IMG/VR virus record: IMGVR_UViG_3300032007_000017
Direction: 5' to 3' (one strand)
DNA from: a virus
Lineage: Duplodnaviria > Caudoviricetes
DNA length: 64,000 nt
Shown here piece after piece: positions 11,542 to 45,964 of this stretch. The notes beneath the pieces were generated by a model that searched no databases, had not been told where the DNA came from, and saw nothing but the letters and a program-made list of their open reading frames with translations. The position numbers were made by a program, and so were the translations under genes. Numbering within the stretch: position 1 is the first letter of the stretch; each line of letters opens with the position of its first letter.

Positions 11542-11706
11542 AAAAAGATACCTGGATATGATCCAGGTATCTTGAAGCGAGGTGAAATACTAGAAGAACT
11601 ACAGAAAATCATTTTAGGAGGTTAAAAATGAACAAAAACGACTGAAAGTGAAGATGACAGAGGTATTACGGACGGACAACGAGTATGGAATTCTCCTAGT
11701 ATTTCT
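11542..11706 (-). ncRNA. candidate anti-RBS sRNA B
   Basis: Promoter AACT-atcttg-TA (11717-11706), 15-bp long-range stem, UUCAUUUUUAACCUCCUAAAA in the loop, U-tailed terminator 11542-11573. Confidence 0.7.
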
Positions 11707-11717
11707 ACAAGATAGTT

Positions 11718-28631: not shown

Positions 28632-29246
28632 CTATCCTTTCAAATATTTTTCGACTCGTTTATCATATTCTATCCCATTTCCTTTACAATAGCTCTTCAT
28701 GAGGTCAATCAAATCTTCTTTTGTAGAATGATAGTCATGACCAATATGCTTAAATTCAGCCATAGAGGTTTTGGTTAGACCAAGCTCGTAAGATAACTCG
28801 ATCGTACCCTCTGGAATAAAATAGAATGCTTCTCCTTTATATTCCCCTTCGATATCATATGGGGTTCCATCAGTATCTACCCATACAACATGAGAGAATG
28901 GAGCAGCCCAGCATACTTCACCTCTCTCGAATGCATTACGAAGCATGTGGGCGAAATAATAACAATATCCTGCTCTAAACTTTTTTCTTATAACTTCCCA
29001 ATTATATTCAGGAAGTTTATCATATCCAGCAAAGTCACCAATGAACTTTAATACTTCATCGCGCATCTCATTTCGTTCCATTATCGAAAATTTCAATTTA
29101 ATGCCTTCTCCATATCCTAAAGATTCCAATAAGGTCGACATAAGGTTATCGGCTTCTTCATAAAAAATGCCTGGCGATTCATACATATCTTGAAGTGCAA
29201 GTATTTGGTTCTTAAATTCTTCTGGGGTCATAACTTTTTCGCTCAT
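28632..29246 (-). CDS. hypothetical protein with Cys-His-Asp (papain/transglutaminase-like) signature
   Basis: GYCYYFA .. HVV .. YDIEG; early motif at 29275-29290. Confidence 0.55.
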   Translation of the reverse strand: MSEKVMTPEEFKNQILALQDMYESPGIFYEEADNLMSTLLESLGYGEGIKLKFSIMERNEMRDEVLKFIGDFAGYDKLPEYNWEVIRKKFRAGYCYYFAHMLRNAFERGEVCWAAPFSHVVWVDTDGTPYDIEGEYKGEAFYFIPEGTIELSYELGLTKTSMAEFKHIGHDYHSTKEDLIDLMKSYCKGNGIEYDKRVEKYLKG

Positions 29247-29321
29247 AATTGGTTTCTCCTTTCGATTTAGTACTATAATAATAATATATATTTAAAATAA
29301 ATAAAGGTAGCGATGCTACCT

Positions 29322-33093: not shown

Positions 33094-35883
33094 TTATTCT
33101 TCACTCATGATACCATCATTGGAGATTTTATCTTTACGATAGTATTTCTCTCCTTTGAGGTTCATATGATACTTTACTTTAGAACGTTGTCTTTCGAGAT
33201 TTCTTTGAATCTCATACAACTTTCTAAGAGCTTTCAAGTCATTCTTAGATTCTGCTGTGTCAATATATTTCTGACACATCTTCAGCTCGACATCGAGCTC
33301 ATCAAGAATCTGTTGACGTTGTTTCGACTGAAGTGCTTTAGTTCCTCCAATATAACCCAAAACTCCAATAACAGCAATTGCAGGGTCAATCAGAGCAGCG
33401 CCACCAGCCAGAATAGCTAGCTTAATAGTTTTAGAAGCACTAGGAATCAGAGATCCTTTGATAACAGCCTCACGATTATTTGACGTAAGAGCTCTCTCAG
33501 CAGACTTTCTAAAATTATTTGCCGCAACATCAATATTCTTACTGATAGTCTTGTCTTTATCAGAAAGCTTCTGTAAGCCTTTCTTGACTTTCTCAGAAGC
33601 AAGCTTCAAAGAATTCAAAACAGACGCTTCAGTAAGAGGAGTTTTATAGATTGCTGCATTATACATCTCAGTCAATCCCATAATAATCTGAAGTCTACCA
33701 GTAAGACGCATAGCCTCACTCATAATATCTTCAGTATTATGGCTCTGCGGGAACATAATGCCTAGCTTTCTATATACATTATCTATGTCATATTTGTCTG
33801 AATAATCAAGTTTAGTAACACCAATCTTAGCATCAGATTTCACATCACTGATAGCAAAAGACAGTGCATCTTTAGAAATGATTTCAGGACTAATACGACA
33901 GACATCGTATAGATCTGTTGCAATGGAAGGATTAGCCTCAATGATTGTATGGAGTTTAGCCTGATCAAAGGATTTAATATCCATATTATCATAAGCTTCA
34001 CTCAATGCAGACATGAGAGCTACATATTTAGCTGATTCTCCAAAGTCTTCAAGATCTCCAAAATCATCATCATTGAAATCGAAGTCTCCTAAATCAAAAT
34101 CTTTGAAGTCATCATCATCAATGTCAATGCTCCCAATAGAAGTATCATCGATGGGCTCATCTTCATCATACTTCTTATCGAGTTCTTCATCATTCAACAG
34201 AGTTTCATAATACTGATCAAGCTTTTGATAGGTATTATAAACCTCTTTTCTATACTCTTGAAGATTCTTTTTCTCTTCATCATTCTTACAGGATTCAATC
34301 TTCTTGTCAACTGCCTTGATTTCAGCTTTAAATGCATTACGTGCTTTAATAGCTTCTTCTCTAGACATATGCATTGCAAGAAGTTTATCTCCTAAGAATA
34401 CGATAGCACCTACTACTGGATGAATAGCAATTCCTCCAATAACAAAAACTCCACGAATATACTTTAACAGATCAGGAAGTTCTTCAACGGAGTTTTCAAT
34501 GCTACCAGCATAAAGCCTGTGAATCAAAGCTTTTAATTTATTTGGTTTATCTGCATCATCAGAAGTTTTGAATTTATTCATAATCTCCTGATAATCAACC
34601 TTCTCTTGAATGCTGACAGCTCCTCCAGGAGTGCTATCCATAATAGCACTAAAGGTAGTATCAGTTAAGAAAGATTCATTCTTAGCAGAATAGTATTTAC
34701 TGAATCGATTATCAGGACCGACATCGACACTCATACCATACTGCTTAATCTTCTTTTTGATATTTCGAGCAAGTTCAGCTTCATCTGCAGAATCGCAATG
34801 ATTAAACATTTGAATTGCAGATCTTACATGTGATTCATCAGGCATTGGATATTTTCTCTTGGAAGGAAGACCATAGTCTTTATCCGAAATAAATGCTCTT
34901 TGACGAGAAGTAAGTTTGGATTCATCCAGAGGATAATCATCATCAACCTCGTCATCATGAATTACATCGAGATCTCCATTATAGTCATTCTTATCGAAAA
35001 CTATAGATCCCTCGAGCATAGTTCTACAAGCAACACTATTTTCTCCAAGAGCCATGTAATAATCGGTAAGTGTAGTAACCAATTCAGATTCATCAAAAGT
35101 ATAAGCATTTCTATGAAGCCCATACCACATAGTCTCTAAACAGGTATTGAAGCGAGCTTTAAGAGGCATATCATATGTCTCAATTAACTTAGCAACTTCA
35201 ATCGCTGTATCAGAGATACCATTTATGATGGTATTCTCTTGAATGATTTTATCAATATTGAATCTCTTGGATACTCGGTTATAGTTCTCTAGAATCCTAT
35301 CGATTGATACAATCTTGGTAGCCTGCTCAAGCATACGCTCATATGCAGTAATTACAGCTTCCTGTTTAGCAGGACTACTATCAGGAGCAGGATTCTGAGG
35401 AGTTACAGATTGAACAAAACTTTTAGCAGGAGCTAGATTGGTTTGAAGGTTAGACTTAATATCATCAATAGATTTCTGAATCATATCAGTAATACTATTA
35501 AGATTCTTATTAACCAAGCTATTCTTGGCATTCATCTTTCCTTTAACTCTACCGAGCTTCTGCTTTAAATATGTTTGAGTCTCTTTGGCGTCTCTGGTTT
35601 TATTTACATACTCTTTGAGAATCAGATTACCATACTTATTGATCTGAGAAACAGTTCCATGTTCTGCCAGAGCATCAAAGAGATTATACATCGAAGATTC
35701 TGACATCGAATGGCTACTATCGCCAATAGCGCATTCAATACAAAAGATAATCTTAGAGGTAAAGCCTGATTGGATAGCTACTTCTGCTTGTTCATCAAAA
35801 GTATCTCTCCGCTTCAGATCTAAATTACCTTCTGGGATATTACGAATTCTGTTGCGTACATCTACTATACTCAACTGTTTCAT
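33094..35883 (-). CDS. large virion/head protein with an inserted DUF6582-like domain
   Basis: YGLPSKRKYPMPDESHVRSAIQMF module, hydrophobic hairpins, many ES/EA sites; promoter 35912-35923. Confidence 0.65.
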   Translation of the reverse strand: MKQLSIVDVRNRIRNIPEGNLDLKRRDTFDEQAEVAIQSGFTSKIIFCIECAIGDSSHSMSESSMYNLFDALAEHGTVSQINKYGNLILKEYVNKTRDAKETQTYLKQKLGRVKGKMNAKNSLVNKNLNSITDMIQKSIDDIKSNLQTNLAPAKSFVQSVTPQNPAPDSSPAKQEAVITAYERMLEQATKIVSIDRILENYNRVSKRFNIDKIIQENTIINGISDTAIEVAKLIETYDMPLKARFNTCLETMWYGLHRNAYTFDESELVTTLTDYYMALGENSVACRTMLEGSIVFDKNDYNGDLDVIHDDEVDDDYPLDESKLTSRQRAFISDKDYGLPSKRKYPMPDESHVRSAIQMFNHCDSADEAELARNIKKKIKQYGMSVDVGPDNRFSKYYSAKNESFLTDTTFSAIMDSTPGGAVSIQEKVDYQEIMNKFKTSDDADKPNKLKALIHRLYAGSIENSVEELPDLLKYIRGVFVIGGIAIHPVVGAIVFLGDKLLAMHMSREEAIKARNAFKAEIKAVDKKIESCKNDEEKKNLQEYRKEVYNTYQKLDQYYETLLNDEELDKKYDEDEPIDDTSIGSIDIDDDDFKDFDLGDFDFNDDDFGDLEDFGESAKYVALMSALSEAYDNMDIKSFDQAKLHTIIEANPSIATDLYDVCRISPEIISKDALSFAISDVKSDAKIGVTKLDYSDKYDIDNVYRKLGIMFPQSHNTEDIMSEAMRLTGRLQIIMGLTEMYNAAIYKTPLTEASVLNSLKLASEKVKKGLQKLSDKDKTISKNIDVAANNFRKSAERALTSNNREAVIKGSLIPSASKTIKLAILAGGAALIDPAIAVIGVLGYIGGTKALQSKQRQQILDELDVELKMCQKYIDTAESKNDLKALRKLYEIQRNLERQRSKVKYHMNLKGEKYYRKDKISNDGIMSEE

Positions 35884-35937: not shown

Positions 35938-36072
35938 ATGCATACTCCCAGGGAAATTCCCTGGGAGTATGACTCGATCATAGGAGGTCCCCAAAAACAA
36001 TGTCTGCAAAGCCCGACACCCGCAGATATCTTATTTGAGTTTAACCAATGAGGCGAAATTCCATTGGCCTTT
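35938..36072 (-). ncRNA. candidate anti-RBS sRNA D
   Basis: Promoter AACA-cttaag-TA (36083-36072), two hairpins, GACAUUGUUUUUGGGGACCUCCUA, terminal hairpin 35941-35971. Confidence 0.65.
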
Positions 36073-36104
36073 ACTTAAGTGTTATGCACAAACTTGTCAC
36101 ATAT

Positions 36105-36340
36105 GAGAAAAAAAATAAAGTTATTTTATAGGGGTGGTGGGGAGGGTTGTACATTTCTGTACAACCCTCCCAGATGAGGTGACAAAGAAGGTGATGGCCA
36201 TCTCGAGAGAAGGAGAAACCCTGGATGGGGAAGATGCAAAATCATGTCAAATATAAACTACACCGTCAGCAGTTTTTCGACGATTTGACTATGAATACAA
36301 GCACCTATTGTACTCTCGAGACTTATTTACTTCTTCATCA
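36105..36340 (-). ncRNA. candidate early multi-anti-SD RNA E
   Basis: Early motif 36343-36355, long-range stem TCTCGAGAG/CTCTCGAGA, several CU-rich tracts, 14-bp hairpin 36140-36171; no ORF. Confidence 0.6.
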
Positions 36341-36423
36341 CGATAATAATATATAATCAAAACTTGATTTAATTACGAAATTACAGATCCCTGAGGAAAA
36401 CCTCAGGGATCATTATTATTTGC

Positions 36424-37269
36424 TTAGAATTTAGAGCAATAGTCCTCAATATCATTCTTGATATAAGACTCAAGATTGACATAGAACTTCTCACCATTCT
36501 TGGTACTAAGCATGACAGCAGTACCACCACGAACAAGTTGAATGGATTCATAGAATACCTCAAACTGTTCGATGATAGAACGGACGTTAGCAGACTCCTG
36601 CTTGATATAGCTCATAACTTCCTCATTCATAATGGGGATAATAGAGCTCTCAGTGACAATCTTCTTATCCTTCTTAGCCATAGCAGCTTCAAAGTAAGAA
36701 TTGAAAGACTTCTGAACACCAGCAGACTCTGTAACGAGTTTATGTGTATATGCTCCAGGATGAGAGGGGAAGATAACGAAGTCATGTGTAATGTACTTCA
36801 GATCTCTAACGAGATTTCTTCCACCAATCTGCTGAAGGGTACCAAGCGAACGCATAGAAAATGCAGGCTTGCAACCCTCAAGAAGATCCTTATTAACAGC
36901 TTCACCATAATCATTATTTGTTCCAGTATAGTGAGCCATCCACTTCGGACCATCCATCCAGAACTTTAGATAACGGACAGCAGTCTCTTTAGGATCGATC
37001 GTTTGCTGGCGAATAATAGAAGAATCCATCGGGTGACCAGCCTCACCGAGCATATAACCAGCGGCAAGCAGTTCTTTTGTACGAGCACAATTCTGCTCTC
37101 TGGTAAGATCAGCAGTCAGATAGCAACGACCATTGCGGTTCTCTTCCTCGCCTTCTTGAAGGCAAGCTTCGCCGATAGGCTTATTATTTGAGGTGCCAAC
37201 AATATGAGCATCACTAGCAGTGTAAGCATCCTCAAGAATGATATGTCCAATATTAATAGCGGCAGGCAT
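36424..37269 (-). CDS. prohead core protease (T4 gp21-like)
   Basis: ENRNGRCY, GEAGHP, FSMRSLG, ITHDFVIFPSHPGA motifs. Confidence 0.9.
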   Translation of the reverse strand: MPAAINIGHIILEDAYTASDAHIVGTSNNKPIGEACLQEGEEENRNGRCYLTADLTREQNCARTKELLAAGYMLGEAGHPMDSSIIRQQTIDPKETAVRYLKFWMDGPKWMAHYTGTNNDYGEAVNKDLLEGCKPAFSMRSLGTLQQIGGRNLVRDLKYITHDFVIFPSHPGAYTHKLVTESAGVQKSFNSYFEAAMAKKDKKIVTESSIIPIMNEEVMSYIKQESANVRSIIEQFEVFYESIQLVRGGTAVMLSTKNGEKFYVNLESYIKNDIEDYCSKF

Positions 37270-37611: not shown

Positions 37612-38481
37612 ATGGAATTTCCATGCAGAATGGTTGCAGAGAAAATCATTCAGGAGAATAAGGAAAGAGTTGGGAATTTAATTGGCATTCCTAAGATCGA
37701 AATGATCGGCAAGTATGTCAGTGGTACTAAAAGAGCAAGTAAAGATTTCAATTACTTCATGCTCAGTATGTGTGATGCTGCAAATGCATCTGGCATAGAA
37801 CTTTGTTCCTCATTTGATGATACTGATGATGGAGTTAAATACCTAATCAAAAGAGCCAATGATGATACTCGTACAAGCGGTATTATTGTAGAGAATGGGT
37901 TAGATTATAATATTTATGATAGAATTGTTTTCAATAAAGATATCGACTGTTGTAATTCTATCAATCTTGGGATGTTTTATGGAAATAGAAAAAATCCTTA
38001 TCTGTACCCTACTTATATTCCAGCTACAGCAGAAGCTGTTATAGAGTTATTAGAATTCAGAGGATTCGATTTAGATAACTCTAAAATTGCAGTAATTGGT
38101 CGTGGAACGGTTGGTAGATCTGTTGCTACTCTTTGCACTCAAAAGAATGCAATGGTTACTATCTGCCATTCTAAAACAAGTGAAGATCATATCAAAGAAA
38201 TCTGTAGGAATTCCAATATCATTGTTGCTTGTACTGGTCATCCTCTTTATCATCTTGATGAATGGATTGGAGATCGTACTATTGCTATTGTGAATGTAGG
38301 TCTTACAGACGTTCCTAAAGAGGTATTCGAAAAGTATAAGGATTCATCCATGCTTACAATCAGTCCTGCTAAGAATGGCATCGGATTGATAACGTCGGCA
38401 TTGCTCTGTAAGCATGCTATTGATTCGTATGAGTTTATATGTTTACGATCATCACTCCTGCAAAAAATGGTATCGGGTTGA
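37612..38481 (+). CDS. folD: methylenetetrahydrofolate dehydrogenase/cyclohydrolase (divergent)
   Basis: KDIDC, PATAEAV, VIGRGTVGR, VTICHSKT, GIGLIT motifs. Confidence 0.85.
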   Translation: MEFPCRMVAEKIIQENKERVGNLIGIPKIEMIGKYVSGTKRASKDFNYFMLSMCDAANASGIELCSSFDDTDDGVKYLIKRANDDTRTSGIIVENGLDYNIYDRIVFNKDIDCCNSINLGMFYGNRKNPYLYPTYIPATAEAVIELLEFRGFDLDNSKIAVIGRGTVGRSVATLCTQKNAMVTICHSKTSEDHIKEICRNSNIIVACTGHPLYHLDEWIGDRTIAIVNVGLTDVPKEVFEKYKDSSMLTISPAKNGIGLITSALLCKHAIDSYEFICLRSSLLQKMVSG

Positions 38482-38546: not shown

Positions 38547-38668
38547 AAAAGAAGAGGGGAAACCCTCTTCTTTTTTTCTGTAATACTTTCGATTTATGAA
38601 GATATATTATTAAGATAGAAGATGGGTGTGATGGCCCATCAAATATTACATAAAGGAGAGACCCCACG

Positions 38669-38857
38669 ATGAAGAAAAAGTTCTTTAGCCCACTCGATAT
38701 GGCGGATGCCATGTTCAACCTTGGTTACACAAGAGAGGAGATCGAGGACAAGATCTCCTCAATGCTCGAAGACTCAATGGACATCTATGGGTTTCACGAG
38801 GAAACTCAGGAAACCCTTCAGCGTCAGCATGATGAGGCTATCCCTCCCGAGTGGTGA
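38669..38857 (+). CDS. small acidic early protein
   Basis: Early motif 38602-38613, AAGGAG RBS, own terminator. Confidence 0.7.
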   Translation: MKKKFFSPLDMADAMFNLGYTREEIEDKISSMLEDSMDIYGFHEETQETLQRQHDEAIPPEW

Positions 38858-38892: not shown

Positions 38893-41423
38893 TTAGAATT
38901 TAGGTACAGAAGTCTTACCAACAGCATCAGGAAGTTTGAGTGTTAAATTATAGATTGCTTGATAAGCTTCATTACCACAGTTACGAATCGGAGTTCCTCC
39001 CATACCAATAAGATTAAAGTTCTGATTCATAACATGCTCGAGTTCCTCATTAGCCTCATCTGTGTATATTGGTTTCACGGTAATCGTATCGCCATCGTAA
39101 TCTAGATTAGTAAATAGTATTTACGGTAAGATAAATATTATTTTTTTTTACTTAAGTTCGCAATTCTTAAGCGCTTTCGCTTCTCATACTTTCGTATGAG
39201 TATAGATCATATGTTCACCCTTCTCTTTCGAGTTAGGGGCAGGATTTTTCTTCTGCCGTAAGCTTGCAGTTCTACTCTCCCGTCAGGAGATGATCGTTGA
39301 ACCTTCACCATTTTACAGGCGAGTGGCTGCTGAATTCCCATTTGCGATACCTGAGTTTTAGGATTTAACCATGACCCATCCTAATTACTTTTTTCTACTT
39401 TCGTAACCATCACGCTTGCCTTTTCAAGCTACGTTGTGGTGAATTAGGCTTTAGGGATTGCCAGCAATTAACCCTGGAAACTTACTCATTACTGAATAAG
39501 CTGAGATTACCATTAGGCTACTCCATTAAGGCCATCGAGATACAAATTACAGATATTAGCCGAGTCTACAAACATATTGGATGTATTGTTTCCAATATCA
39601 TCCTGGCGTATATATGGATAATTCTTATAGAACTTTCCATCTATTACCATAGGCTCTGTTTTATTGGTAGAGTTTACATGGATTCCAATAGGAAATTGAT
39701 TGTAGATAGAATCTCAATTGTGTTCAACTAGGGTCGCTAATCCTAGCCCGCTTTATTCAAGCTGCACTATGTCACCATAGTAGTTCAGACTATATCACCA
39801 TCTCAGAGAGATGTTCCGCATTTCGACCCGCTTGGGCCTACGTCATAAAGACTAGTCGTTGAGCCTTCCTAGCACATCCTTTTACTCTAGGCTTGGTTGC
39901 TGATTGTCTCATTTTGAGAGTTTCCAGCAATTAACGGAATTTTCTTAATAGATCGCTCTATTAAGCCACGAATTCATGGGATATCTACATATAATAGCTT
40001 TACGACCTTCAGCAGCTTCTACAGTTGCAATATAGATCAGGTCACACCATGTAAACCAACGTTCAACAATAGGCATATTGCCTACACCAGATTCGTATTC
40101 TTCTTTAGTTACATTGAATCCTTTAAAATGAAGGTAGATCTTTCTACCATCAACAGTTTCAACTTCAATAGGAAGTAATCTGGTCGAATAACCATTGCAG
40201 AAACGGTTAAGTTCTTTACGCAATCTCTCTTCAGAAAATTGCATTTGATAGTCTTTAATATAGACTATCTCTTCTTTTCCTGTCTTGGGATCAATACAAG
40301 GAACTCCTTTATTTCCAGAGAAAGCGTTTTCAAAATACCTCTTCATATGGAAGATGACAAAAGGAGTAAAGTTTGCTGCTGCTGATGCAAGAGGAATGGC
40401 AGCATAATCCAAGTCAGCCTGCATGTCTTCGATCTTTTCAACCTTCAATTCAGGGGCTGACATAACAAGACGAGAAGCATAGTCGGTGGTCTTAGACATA
40501 ACAGAACGTCTAAGAACACCAAGCTTACCAGGAACATTAGGTCCTGTAGTAGTACCATTAATAGTAGTACCATTTCCAAAATAGTCAAAGATCTGAACAA
40601 TCGACATTTGAATACGACCACGAGTAGCTCCAGCCATATCCAATCCATAGTCAGTAGATTCTTTAAGAGCTTTAGTAGCGAGAATCAGATTACGATAGAG
40701 TTGATTAATCTCTCCGATAGAGATTCTGCCACCCTTAGATGTATCCACATCTCGTAATGCAGCAGGAATAACAACTATCTTTCTAATCCATGCACCAGGA
40801 TCTCGTTTACAAGCATTGATAAAATCAACGTCTTGATCTCTACGGATTGATGCTGTTCTTGCTACATTGATTTTCTCAAAGTTATCCTTTAAGAACTTCA
40901 ATCCAGTCTTACCGTGTTCAGGATCTTCTACCAATACTCCATTATCAGTAATGGAGAAATATTTCGTTTCATTAACACAAGCAGGAATCTTCTTATCAAG
41001 CTTAGACCATACTTTATAGAGTTCTGGACTCATAAACCACTCATGAAGATCAATATAAGCACAAGTGTTCATACGATCATACATAGTGATTCCAAAGATC
41101 TCATTGGATAATAGTCCATCTGAGGTAGGAATATTATTTCTAGAGAAAGTGATTGGATTGGTAATGGGCTTTAAATCATTAACCGAAACCAATCTATCTA
41201 CATCTAGAAGATTCACTCTCAGATGCTTAGGTCTCACTTGATTTCCATCTTCATACAGAAAGTTTTCAATCAAGAATCTCATGAAACCTTCTGCTTTATC
41301 TGCACTTTTTACTTTAGTAGGAGTATTATACCTGTCATCATAGTTTTCATGCTTGGCAAATAATTCAGGATCTTCATTTCCTAAATATCCACCATTTCTA
41401 ATACTATATGGTAAAATACCCAT
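38893..41423 (-). CDS. rpoC: phage RNA polymerase beta-prime N-terminal subunit; exons 41423-39976, 39714-39521, 39101-38893 (616 aa spliced)
   Basis: DGLLSNEIFG and GKLGVLRRSVMSKTTDYASRLV; splicing restores RYPI-DS and the catalytic NG-DYDGD in frame. Confidence 0.9.
39102..39520 (-). ncRNA. group I intron 2 (419 nt, no ORF)
   Basis: P AAUUGCUGGCAA, Q UUCAGCAGCC, R UCAACGAUCA, S CAUAUGAUCU; P3 CAGGGUU/AAUCCUG; GNRA-capped P2 and P9; terminal G. Confidence 0.88.
39715..39975 (-). ncRNA. group I intron 1 (261 nt, no ORF)
   Basis: P AAUUGCUGGAAA, Q AAUCAGCAACC, R UCAACGACUA, S GAUAUAGUCU; P1 CCAU/GUGG with U.G wobble; terminal G. Confidence 0.93.
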
Positions 41424-45157: not shown

Positions 45158-45862
45158 TTATTGTTTATAACGATCTTTCCTATAAGGATAAGATTCGTCA
45201 AAAGATTTCAGATCATTAGGAGTCATATAACCAAGCTCAATAGCTCTGATGATATCCTCACGTCTTCTAACGAAACGTTTAGGAGGTTCTTTTCCAGCAG
45301 CTATAGCTTCTTGCTTTCTTTCTTCTTTAATCATATTCCAAAATTCTTTAATGACTTTAGCCTGTTCGGTTTTATTGAGTTCATTAAAAGGAATATTGGA
45401 TTTATCAGATGATTTATTTTCTTCTTTGGATTTATGATATCTTTCTTTTTCCATTGCGGATTTTACACGCTTAGCCAGTAATTCACTTTCTTTCTTTTGC
45501 TTTTCAAGCAATTTCTTGCGTTCATCAGTAATTTTACTAGGAGGAACTTGTTTACCTTTGCTTTTATAATAAGTTGGATTAGGAGTTAAGTCTTCATCAG
45601 GAAGACAATACACTATTCCAGCATTTTTACTATTTATAGAAAACGATACAAGATGATCGCAATTATTACATAAATCAGAAGTATATTTATAAGGGCATTC
45701 TACAGCTCTAATATCTGGCCTATCAGCACCAAAATGATTAGTTAATGATACATATACCCCATTACAACGATGTGATAAAACATCAACGCCAGCTTTCTTT
45801 CTAGCCTCATTGACTTCTGCGTTGATTTTAAGTTTAGCGGTTTTGATTTGGTCTTTATTCAT
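45158..45862 (-). CDS. basic Cys-containing hypothetical protein
   Basis: Start MNKD after GAGGTG; CP..CxxC cluster; promoter 45889-45900. Confidence 0.65.
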   Translation of the reverse strand: MNKDQIKTAKLKINAEVNEARKKAGVDVLSHRCNGVYVSLTNHFGADRPDIRAVECPYKYTSDLCNNCDHLVSFSINSKNAGIVYCLPDEDLTPNPTYYKSKGKQVPPSKITDERKKLLEKQKKESELLAKRVKSAMEKERYHKSKEENKSSDKSNIPFNELNKTEQAKVIKEFWNMIKEERKQEAIAAGKEPPKRFVRRREDIIRAIELGYMTPNDLKSFDESYPYRKDRYKQ

Positions 45863-45964
45863 GATTAAACACCTCATCTTTACAAGATTACTCAAATGTT
45901 GAGGCCCCTGTAGAATACAGCACCCGGAACATCTCAATAATTATCGTACAAGGAGGTTATTTCC

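Follow-up and report, generated by a model that had tools for sequence, protein, structure and literature searches.

What is made from the 540-bp spacer that separates the prohead protease gene (36424-37269, minus strand) from the gene for a 929-aa DUF6582 protein (33094-35883, minus strand) in this phage, and on what would such a product act? The window, that is, the whole stretch of 64,000 nucleotides that was analysed, belongs to a 178-kb IMG/VR virus record, and the phage is represented by metagenome sequence only. An earlier note on this DNA placed in the spacer an early minus-strand transcript, RNA E, and described it as a clamped RNA of about 230 nt with five tracts complementary to Shine-Dalgarno (SD) sequences, which might regulate many targets and possibly shut off host translation. 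Judged from its genes, the source is a giant phage that is distant kin of the Bacillus phages AR9/PBS1 and of Staphylococcus/Listeria jumbo phages. This placement is based on the prohead protease, which is 25-28% identical to its counterparts in those phages and is assigned to the Peptidase_S77 family, and on an RNA polymerase beta-like gene that is split, with a group I intron inside (39765-39987, minus strand; Rfam RF00028, 93.7 bits). The protease gene is closed, directly upstream of the RNA E promoter, by a terminator-like hairpin with an 11-bp stem (36386..36411, minus strand), and the matching position of L016, a relative described below, has a hairpin with another sequence. Among relatives the spacer between the protease and DUF6582 genes is a variable hot spot of 157-1150 bp, in which small genes of 49-93 aa are found (L020 4107-4355 and L023 4111-4392, both on the minus strand, L026 3527-3676, L011 4851-5126, and L017 3908-4114); in two relatives, one of these is a Tad8 (PF25189) gene of the anti-defence type.

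The virion polymerase of AR9 recognises the early promoter consensus AAATATATATTAT-N6-G(+1) (PMC5312081). The stretch GATTATATATTAT-tatcgt at 36340..36358 on the minus strand matches this consensus, and the early motif TATATATTAT-N6-G at 36355-36339 (N6 is tatcgt) has both the 6-nt spacing and the G at the predicted +1, position 36339. An early motif with N6-G/A was also found 6-130 nt upstream of 38 of the 161 genes that were heuristically called in the record. Because of the match to the AR9 consensus and the recurrence of the same core across the genome, 36339 is likely to be the first transcribed base, and the promoter is conserved in the two relatives L015 and L016. The late consensus AACA-N6-TA occurs twice further downstream, in front of the adjacent small RNA, sRNA D (36083-36072, minus strand), and in front of the 929-aa gene (about 35923-35912, minus strand), so that RNA E is, by these motifs, a separate early unit ahead of two late units. 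Transcription from this start would give, we infer, an RNA of about 200-230 nt, and no conserved open reading frame lies on either strand. The early motif and the non-coding minus-strand RNA that the earlier note had described are thus supported by the promoter match and by the reading frames.

A 240-nt RNA E folds with a minimum free energy (MFE) of -75.8 kcal/mol (z = -5.9; z = -4.2 for the plus strand), and all of the elements that follow are on the minus strand and are numbered from the predicted first transcribed base. Helix H1 is a 10-bp closing helix that begins exactly at the predicted +1 and joins nt 1-10 (GAUGAAGAAG, 36330..36339) to nt 150-159 (CUUCUUUGUC, 36181..36190), with two G.U pairs. 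Helix H2 joins nt 18-27 (GUCUCGAGAG, 36313..36322) to nt 131-140 (CUCUCGAGAU, 36200..36209) and contains the clamp of the earlier note, which is present as described: UCUCGAGAG at 36321-36313 pairs with CUCUCGAGA at 36209-36201 with a probability of about 1 in the ensemble. Inside H2 is a variable interior domain (nt 28-118, 36222..36312), followed by a mostly unpaired segment, block a (UCCAGGGUUUCUCC, nt 115-128, 36212..36225). Block b (GGCCAUCACC, nt 141-150, 36190..36199) lies in the internal loop, and beyond H1 a single-stranded linker (36172..36181) carries block c, CACCUCA (nt 159-165). In the MFE fold the RNA continues with a terminal 14-bp hairpin, GGGAGGGUUGUACA-gaaa-UGUACAACCCUCCC (nt 169-200, 36140..36171), and then with a 3' tail, CACCACCCC...UUUAUUUUUUUU (36108..36139), whose U-run is a possible 3' end.

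The collections that were searched first held distant relatives only, with spacers of 157-822 bp, and none of these had an alignable RNA E; closer phages were found by a protein search with the prohead protease. In L015, where the protease is 99% identical, there are six differences from the window in the 5' domain, all of them in loops or in the interior, and one L015 difference turns a G-C pair into G.U. This change and the G.U pairs of the fold fit the minus strand as the RNA strand. In L016, where the protease is 88% identical, the promoter is kept as TGTATATTAT-tatcat-G, and blocks a, b, and c are unchanged; the U-run is also retained, as is the next RNA's late promoter, while the remainder of RNA E has diverged and the interior is shorter. 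The L016 copy folds independently into the same H1/H2 closing helices (z = -7.4), with the H1 pairs kept and both sides changed, and it has a hairpin of unrelated sequence at the position of the terminal hairpin. A covariance model built from the window and L015 detects L016 with 39.5 bits (E = 1.3e-7) and finds no match in 13 more distant loci and no paralogue in the 178-kb record. In the L016 alignment 97.6% of cells are paired, and 11 pairs are changed on both sides versus 3.8 +/- 1.6 in shuffles (0/500) and 0-3 in slid controls, a covariation that comes from a single divergent lineage and from an alignment that was fitted to the structure model. RNAalifold independently predicts H1 and H2.

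Searches for known relatives of RNA E gave nothing further. There was nothing relevant for the region in Rfam either at the gathering cutoff or at E <= 10, and no tRNA or tmRNA was found; blastn of the spacer and tblastn of the 929-aa neighbour against GenBank phages found no match, exact-pattern scans of IMG/VR with two RNA E motifs found none, and blastn of RNA E gave no significant match in any of the relative loci or elsewhere in the genome. In phages whose protease is 70-78% identical the same slot holds a different small unit, E' (L011 4430-4625, L017 3420-3640, L021 3440-3650, L020 3760-3900, and L024 3760-3890), which ends in a conserved CAGUGGCGUAGUUUAUGCC and a canonical terminator. 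The window and the E' units have only a 13-nt block in common, GGUGUAGUUUAUA (36264-36252, minus strand), which is identical to that of L017. The promoter of E' is early-like in some of these phages and late-like in others. In the distant relative L008 a hairpin with the loop GGUGAUGGCC lies in the protease spacer (1960-2010), with no recognisable promoter near it, so that the loop motif reaches beyond the lineage that carries RNA E. On the whole, RNA E is very probably a real and functional early non-coding RNA.

Which parts of this RNA would be available to a partner can be read from the ensemble. The probability of being unpaired is about 0.9 for UUUCUCCUU (about 0.9 for the UUUCUCC of block a), 0.94 for GGCCAUCAC in block b, 0.99 for ACCUCAUCU, and 0.97 for CACCACCCC. 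It is 0.26 for CAUCUUCCCC, the CCUUC part of UCACCUUC is paired inside H1, and CCCUCCC is paired as an arm of the hairpin. The blocks that are unpaired in the ensemble are the same as those that are invariant in L016, namely a, b, and c, and their flanks diverge. Each of the three blocks thus provides an accessible and conserved seed of the sort expected in a base-pairing small RNA.

We compared the three exposed segments with the 5' regions of all 161 genes. The gene at 38669-38857 ranked first of the 161 both for block a (-24.5 kcal/mol) and for block b (-17.4), and its total was -56.0 versus -40.5 for the runner-up and -39.8 +/- 2.5 for shuffled segments (0/150), figures that come from an open-ended search in which some selection bias remains. 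This is an early gene for an acidic protein of 62 aa with no membrane helix, and it lies 2.3 kb from RNA E on the opposite strand. A FolD-like methylene-tetrahydrofolate dehydrogenase/cyclohydrolase gene lies between the two (37612-38481, plus strand), a call that rests on Pfam THF_DHG_CYH matches to the L015 and L016 orthologs. The predicted target region (38603..38672, plus strand) begins with an early promoter, TATATTAT, at 38603-38610, with +1 at the A at 38617, and continues with a leader hairpin at 38621-38640, whose loop is UGUGAUGG, an SD, AAGGAGAGACCC, around 38653-38664, and the AUG at 38669. The three pairing sites on this leader are colinear and antiparallel: in the leader hairpin the 5' arm pairs with block c and the loop plus 3' arm (GUGAUGGCC) with block b, block a, which is complementary to the SD region, pairs with AAGGAGAGACCC, and a further CAUC pairs with the GAUG at the start codon.

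The contact with block b also stands out beyond the annotated genes, as the 38669 leader is the best non-self partner of block b in the whole 178-kb record on both strands, and likewise in L028. When opening energies are included, block a is again the best of 161 (-14.9 vs -10.5; -12.3 with the true leader). For block b, opening of the leader hairpin costs ~10 kcal/mol and leaves a net of ~-6, and in the accessibility-corrected ranking for this block gene 38669 is outside the top six. It is also outside the top eight partners in nested-only cofolding, a method that cannot represent loop-loop contacts.

The L016 ortholog of the 38669 gene encodes 58 aa and is 45% identical, and its leader keeps the loop UGUGAUGG on a different stem. 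Block b of L016 pairs with this leader over 11 bp at -20.7 versus -11.8 for the next of 13 genes, and the leader is the best non-self partner of block b in 12.6 kb. Two bases that flank the core of block b differ in both partners and still pair, as AU-AU here and as GC-GC in L016. Block a matches the L016 leader over only 6-7 nt. Because blocks a and c are invariant and the match of the L016 leader to block a is short, pairing with the 38669 leader does not explain the conservation of these two blocks.

Other early leaders may also be contacted. Five of the six best partners of block b are leaders with early promoters (there are 38 early genes among the 161), and these five carry the common motif [A/G]U[G/A]AUGG[C/U/A]C, from which a small regulon of early leaders is possible. 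As a class, early leaders are no better partners of block b than other genes (Mann-Whitney p = 0.54); only the subset of five is.

The reading that we favor, to which we give a probability of roughly 45%, is that RNA E is an early trans-acting antisense RNA that would limit translation of early phage genes, chiefly 38669. The virion-type (early) RNA polymerase would start at G 36339 and produce a non-coding RNA of ~200-230 nt, in which H1 would lock the 5' end, and H1 and H2 together would hold the interior domain and display the single-stranded C/U-rich blocks a, b, and c. RNA E would then pair in trans with the 5' leaders of early phage mRNAs, of which 38669-38857 is the leading candidate. 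Block b would contact the leader hairpin loop GUGAUGGCC, which is the site of the AUG of a short upstream reading frame, and the SD of 38669 would be masked by block a, together with the main AUG in the case of this phage. As stable RNA E accumulates, translation of the early protein of 38669 would be limited or switched off. That the two RNAs pair in vivo, and in which direction this would act, goes beyond the complementarity that was computed, and the regulatory logic is a guess, both RNAs being early. If the antisense reading holds, it would show that phages of the AR9/PBS1 group control early genes post-transcriptionally.

A more specific reading, about which we are doubtful, takes RNA E to be the antisense image of an early leader, possibly an inverted duplication, and a translational timer, a long-lived early RNA that would dock loop-loop on upstream AUGs. 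The upstream frames would lie in the loops of five leaders, with the main genes coupled to them through overlapping AUGA, and the timer, if real, would add an RNA-based layer of early shut-off to the two-polymerase programme of AR9-like phages. As for the origin, the plus strand of RNA E resembles the 38669 leader (local alignment p = 0.002 vs shuffles), with a score for this leader of 33 versus 32 for another 5' region, and an inverted-duplication origin from the 38669 leader is only suggestive. As a separate observation, in several early leaders a hairpin loop holds an AUG (GUGAUGG) that opens an upstream frame of 13-15 codons; these are at 38632-38672 (plus strand) and, elsewhere in the genome in window-scale coordinates, at 85714 (minus strand), 165221 (plus strand), and 160818 (plus strand). 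The upstream frame ends in a UGA that overlaps the main AUG (AUGA) in three of them, and in the fourth it ends 5 nt past the main AUG; by a rough estimate, three overlaps of this kind would arise by chance with a probability of about 2e-4. These endings suggest that early genes may be translated by coupling to upstream frames.

Could the conserved loops instead be there for a protein? It is possible, although we consider it unlikely, that RNA E is a protein-binding or decoy RNA in which the internal loops held by H1 and H2 form a platform for a phage or host protein, for instance a nuclease, an RNA polymerase, or an RNA-binding protein. The internal loop between H1 and H2 is conserved on both sides (AAUAA opposite GGCCAUCAC), which is typical of loops recognised by proteins, the paired 5' end and the terminal hairpin suggest a stable RNA, and, as described above, blocks a and c are invariant with no conserved complement in the L016 leader. 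However, there is no match to 6S RNA, Y RNA, pRNA, or another family even at E <= 10, the fold is a branched domain and not a rod with a central bubble, and it would have to be by coincidence that the complementarity between block b and the leader loop is conserved.

The extent of the transcript bears on a further alternative. The length of about 230 nt in the earlier note requires that transcription stop at the U-run at 36119-36108, and the U-run begins ~20 nt past the strong hairpin at 36171-36140 and does not adjoin it, which leaves the 3' end uncertain. A scan for intrinsic terminators, in which a G+C-rich hairpin is followed immediately by a U-run, did not return this hairpin, and in L016 the U-run is closer to the hairpin through an extended imperfect stem. 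Transcription may continue across the next small RNA and into the 929-aa gene, and it has to be asked whether the early promoter serves a long transcript, giving early or continuous expression, of which RNA E would be only the cis-acting structured leader, that is, a stabiliser or attenuator. The lack of a U-run adjoining the hairpin would suit such a leader, as would the arrangement in L026 and L027, where the slot contains a nearly identical promoter, which serves a 49-aa gene through a leader of ~110 nt. We nevertheless consider this quite unlikely, since three strong hairpins and two late promoters stand between RNA E and the 929-aa gene, the U-run and the hairpin position are kept in L016, and the conserved single-stranded blocks and the closing helices would be left unexplained.

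All five tracts that the earlier note listed are present on the minus strand, at 36236-36227 (CAUCUUCCCC), 36220-36209 (GGUUUCUCCUUC), 36194-36187 (UCACCUUC), 36182-36172 (UCACCUCAUCU), and 36146-36131 (CCCUCCCCACCACCCC). Their use as a general anti-SD riboregulator, in which the tracts would imitate the 3' tail of 16S rRNA (AUCACC, CACCUC) and damp host and phage translation broadly, is improbable in our judgment. The note had counted on the tracts being exposed and conserved, and this is the case for three of the five, which are unpaired in the ensemble and invariant in L016, but not for CAUCUUCCCC or for the CCCUCCCC part that forms the 3' arm of the hairpin, which are neither exposed nor conserved. 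Blocks b and c, both exposed and conserved, each have 6 nt in common with the 16S tail GAUCACCUCC, and the tract density, at ten 5-mers common with the 16S 3' tail per 120 nt, is in the top 0.28% of genome windows and below the maximum of the genome. The mean duplex energy with the 161 ribosome-binding site (RBS) windows was -16.75, versus -13.19 +/- 1.36 for random genomic segments (0.7% as low) and -15.48 +/- 0.63 for dinucleotide shuffles (3% as low). The excess over composition-matched shuffles is thus small, at ~2 sd, and the enrichment in SD complementarity, although real, is modest and mostly due to base composition. Moreover, thousands of SDs are too many for a single small RNA to titrate, and strong SDs of the phage itself would be hit as well. 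A general anti-SD action of RNA E is therefore weakly supported, and the broad range of SD-type targets with host shut-off proposed at the outset was not supported. One particular phage leader, that of 38669, is a better fit to the conserved blocks.

The two individual targets that had been named fared unevenly. AAGGAGAAACC does occur once more in the genome, at 29251-29261 on the minus strand within the RBS of gene 28632-29246, and this match is real, but the L016 contig shows no ortholog of this 204-aa gene at the syntenic position. AGATGAGGTG likewise occurs once more, at 45870-45879 on the minus strand ahead of the start at 45862, and this RBS ranks as the top partner of block c once accessibility is taken into account, but the AUCU of the match is not conserved in L016.

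It is extremely improbable that the locus is only a decayed remnant of an early leader or gene, or that it encodes a 43-aa or 20-aa peptide on the plus strand behind SD-like purine tracts: this would accord with the AAGGAG that stands 8 nt ahead of the ATG of a 43-aa plus-strand frame (36225-36356), with the plus-strand likeness to the 38669 leader given above, and with the variable length of the slot among relatives (157 to 822 bp), but that ATG is absent in L016, the remaining frames on both strands are broken by a 2-nt difference between the window and L016 in the spacer between conserved blocks, no early or late promoter motif faces the plus strand, tblastn with the small frames of the region finds no protein relatives, and the compensatory changes keep H1 and H2, in which three G.U pairs would be mismatches on the plus strand. 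Small open reading frames on both strands were accordingly rejected, having no relatives and neither start nor frame conserved, and the minus strand has no RBS-led frame. The 5' end of RNA E (36338-36327, minus strand) reads G-AUG-AAG-AAG-UAA and that of the L016 copy G-GUG-AAG-GGA-CAA-UAA, a frame of 3-4 codons that is probably incidental since this sequence forms helix H1.

To our knowledge, giant phages with their own RNA polymerases make small RNAs for almost none of which a target or mechanism has been proposed. RNA E comes with a predicted start, compensatory changes that back its fold, exposed loops that are conserved, and, in the same genome, a single candidate target that stands out statistically. 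By the Rfam search it belongs to no described RNA family, and by analogy it is most like the phage P1 c4 antisense RNA and the trans-encoded antitoxin RNAs. According to what Citron and Schuster reportedly found in 1990, c4 acts through two short blocks, and the downstream gene is coupled to the icd frame. The role of C4 RNA in phage P1/P7 (immI) has been described (PMC8198154). Like P1/P7 c4, RNA E is a structured phage small RNA that is predicted to act in trans by short exposed segments, and c4 acts on the ribosome-binding region of icd, a small upstream frame to which a downstream gene is coupled. Unlike RNA E, c4 is processed from the operon that it controls, and it belongs to a temperate phage and is made by the host polymerase, whereas RNA E has its own early promoter for a phage polymerase and a candidate target that is 2.3 kb off on the other strand. 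The two RNAs are related neither in sequence nor through Rfam.

Trans-encoded type I antitoxins such as IstR-1, which acts on tisB, and base-pairing small RNAs have their own promoter, stable stem-loops, and a conserved single-stranded seed, and they pair within a structured 5' leader, either at the RBS or ahead of it. RNA E resembles them in its predicted own promoter, its stem-loops, its seed, and its predicted pairing with a leader, and it differs in having three dispersed blocks and not one seed and in a candidate target that, unlike a typical type I toxin, is an acidic protein without a membrane helix. In the giant phages phiKZ and 201phi2-1, short non-coding transcripts arise from phage promoters, some of them positionally conserved and with functions unknown (PMC11512511). 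RNA E, too, is from a giant phage that encodes its own RNA polymerases; those phages, however, are nucleus-forming Pseudomonas phages whose small RNAs are mostly derived from 5' UTRs, whereas RNA E is intergenic, belongs to the AR9/PBS1-like lineage, and has a specific predicted target. It is like 6S RNA in being about 200 nt long, in having its 5' and 3' regions paired, and in its internal loops. An identity with 6S RNA was rejected, as no 6S model gave a match at E <= 10 and the fold has no large central bubble, its interior being a hairpin domain, and so was an identity with phi29-type pRNA, for which there was no Rfam match and no self-complementary loop pair was seen.

Two other small RNAs of the window are related to this locus by position or by motif. 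The adjacent sRNA D (35941-36083, minus strand) is better conserved than RNA E, with counterparts at L001 4860-4990, L012 1375-1545, L013 498-600, L011 4626-4815, L016 2927-3075, and L017 3636-3805. In every relative examined a late-type AAC(A/T)-N6-TA is followed by 100-170 nt and then by ACCUCC, 8-12 nt, and a hairpin of varying sequence, and the unit lies just ahead of the late promoter of the DUF6582 gene. A kinship in layout with sRNA B (11542-11717, minus strand) was considered and rejected, having no support in sequence by blastn or in structure by the covariance model. sRNA B has a late-type promoter, AACT-N6-TA, and holds GUUCAUUUUUAACCUCCUAAAAU, which is nearly the same motif as that in the D-like RNAs of L001 and L012 and is reverse-complementary to a consensus SD plus AUG.
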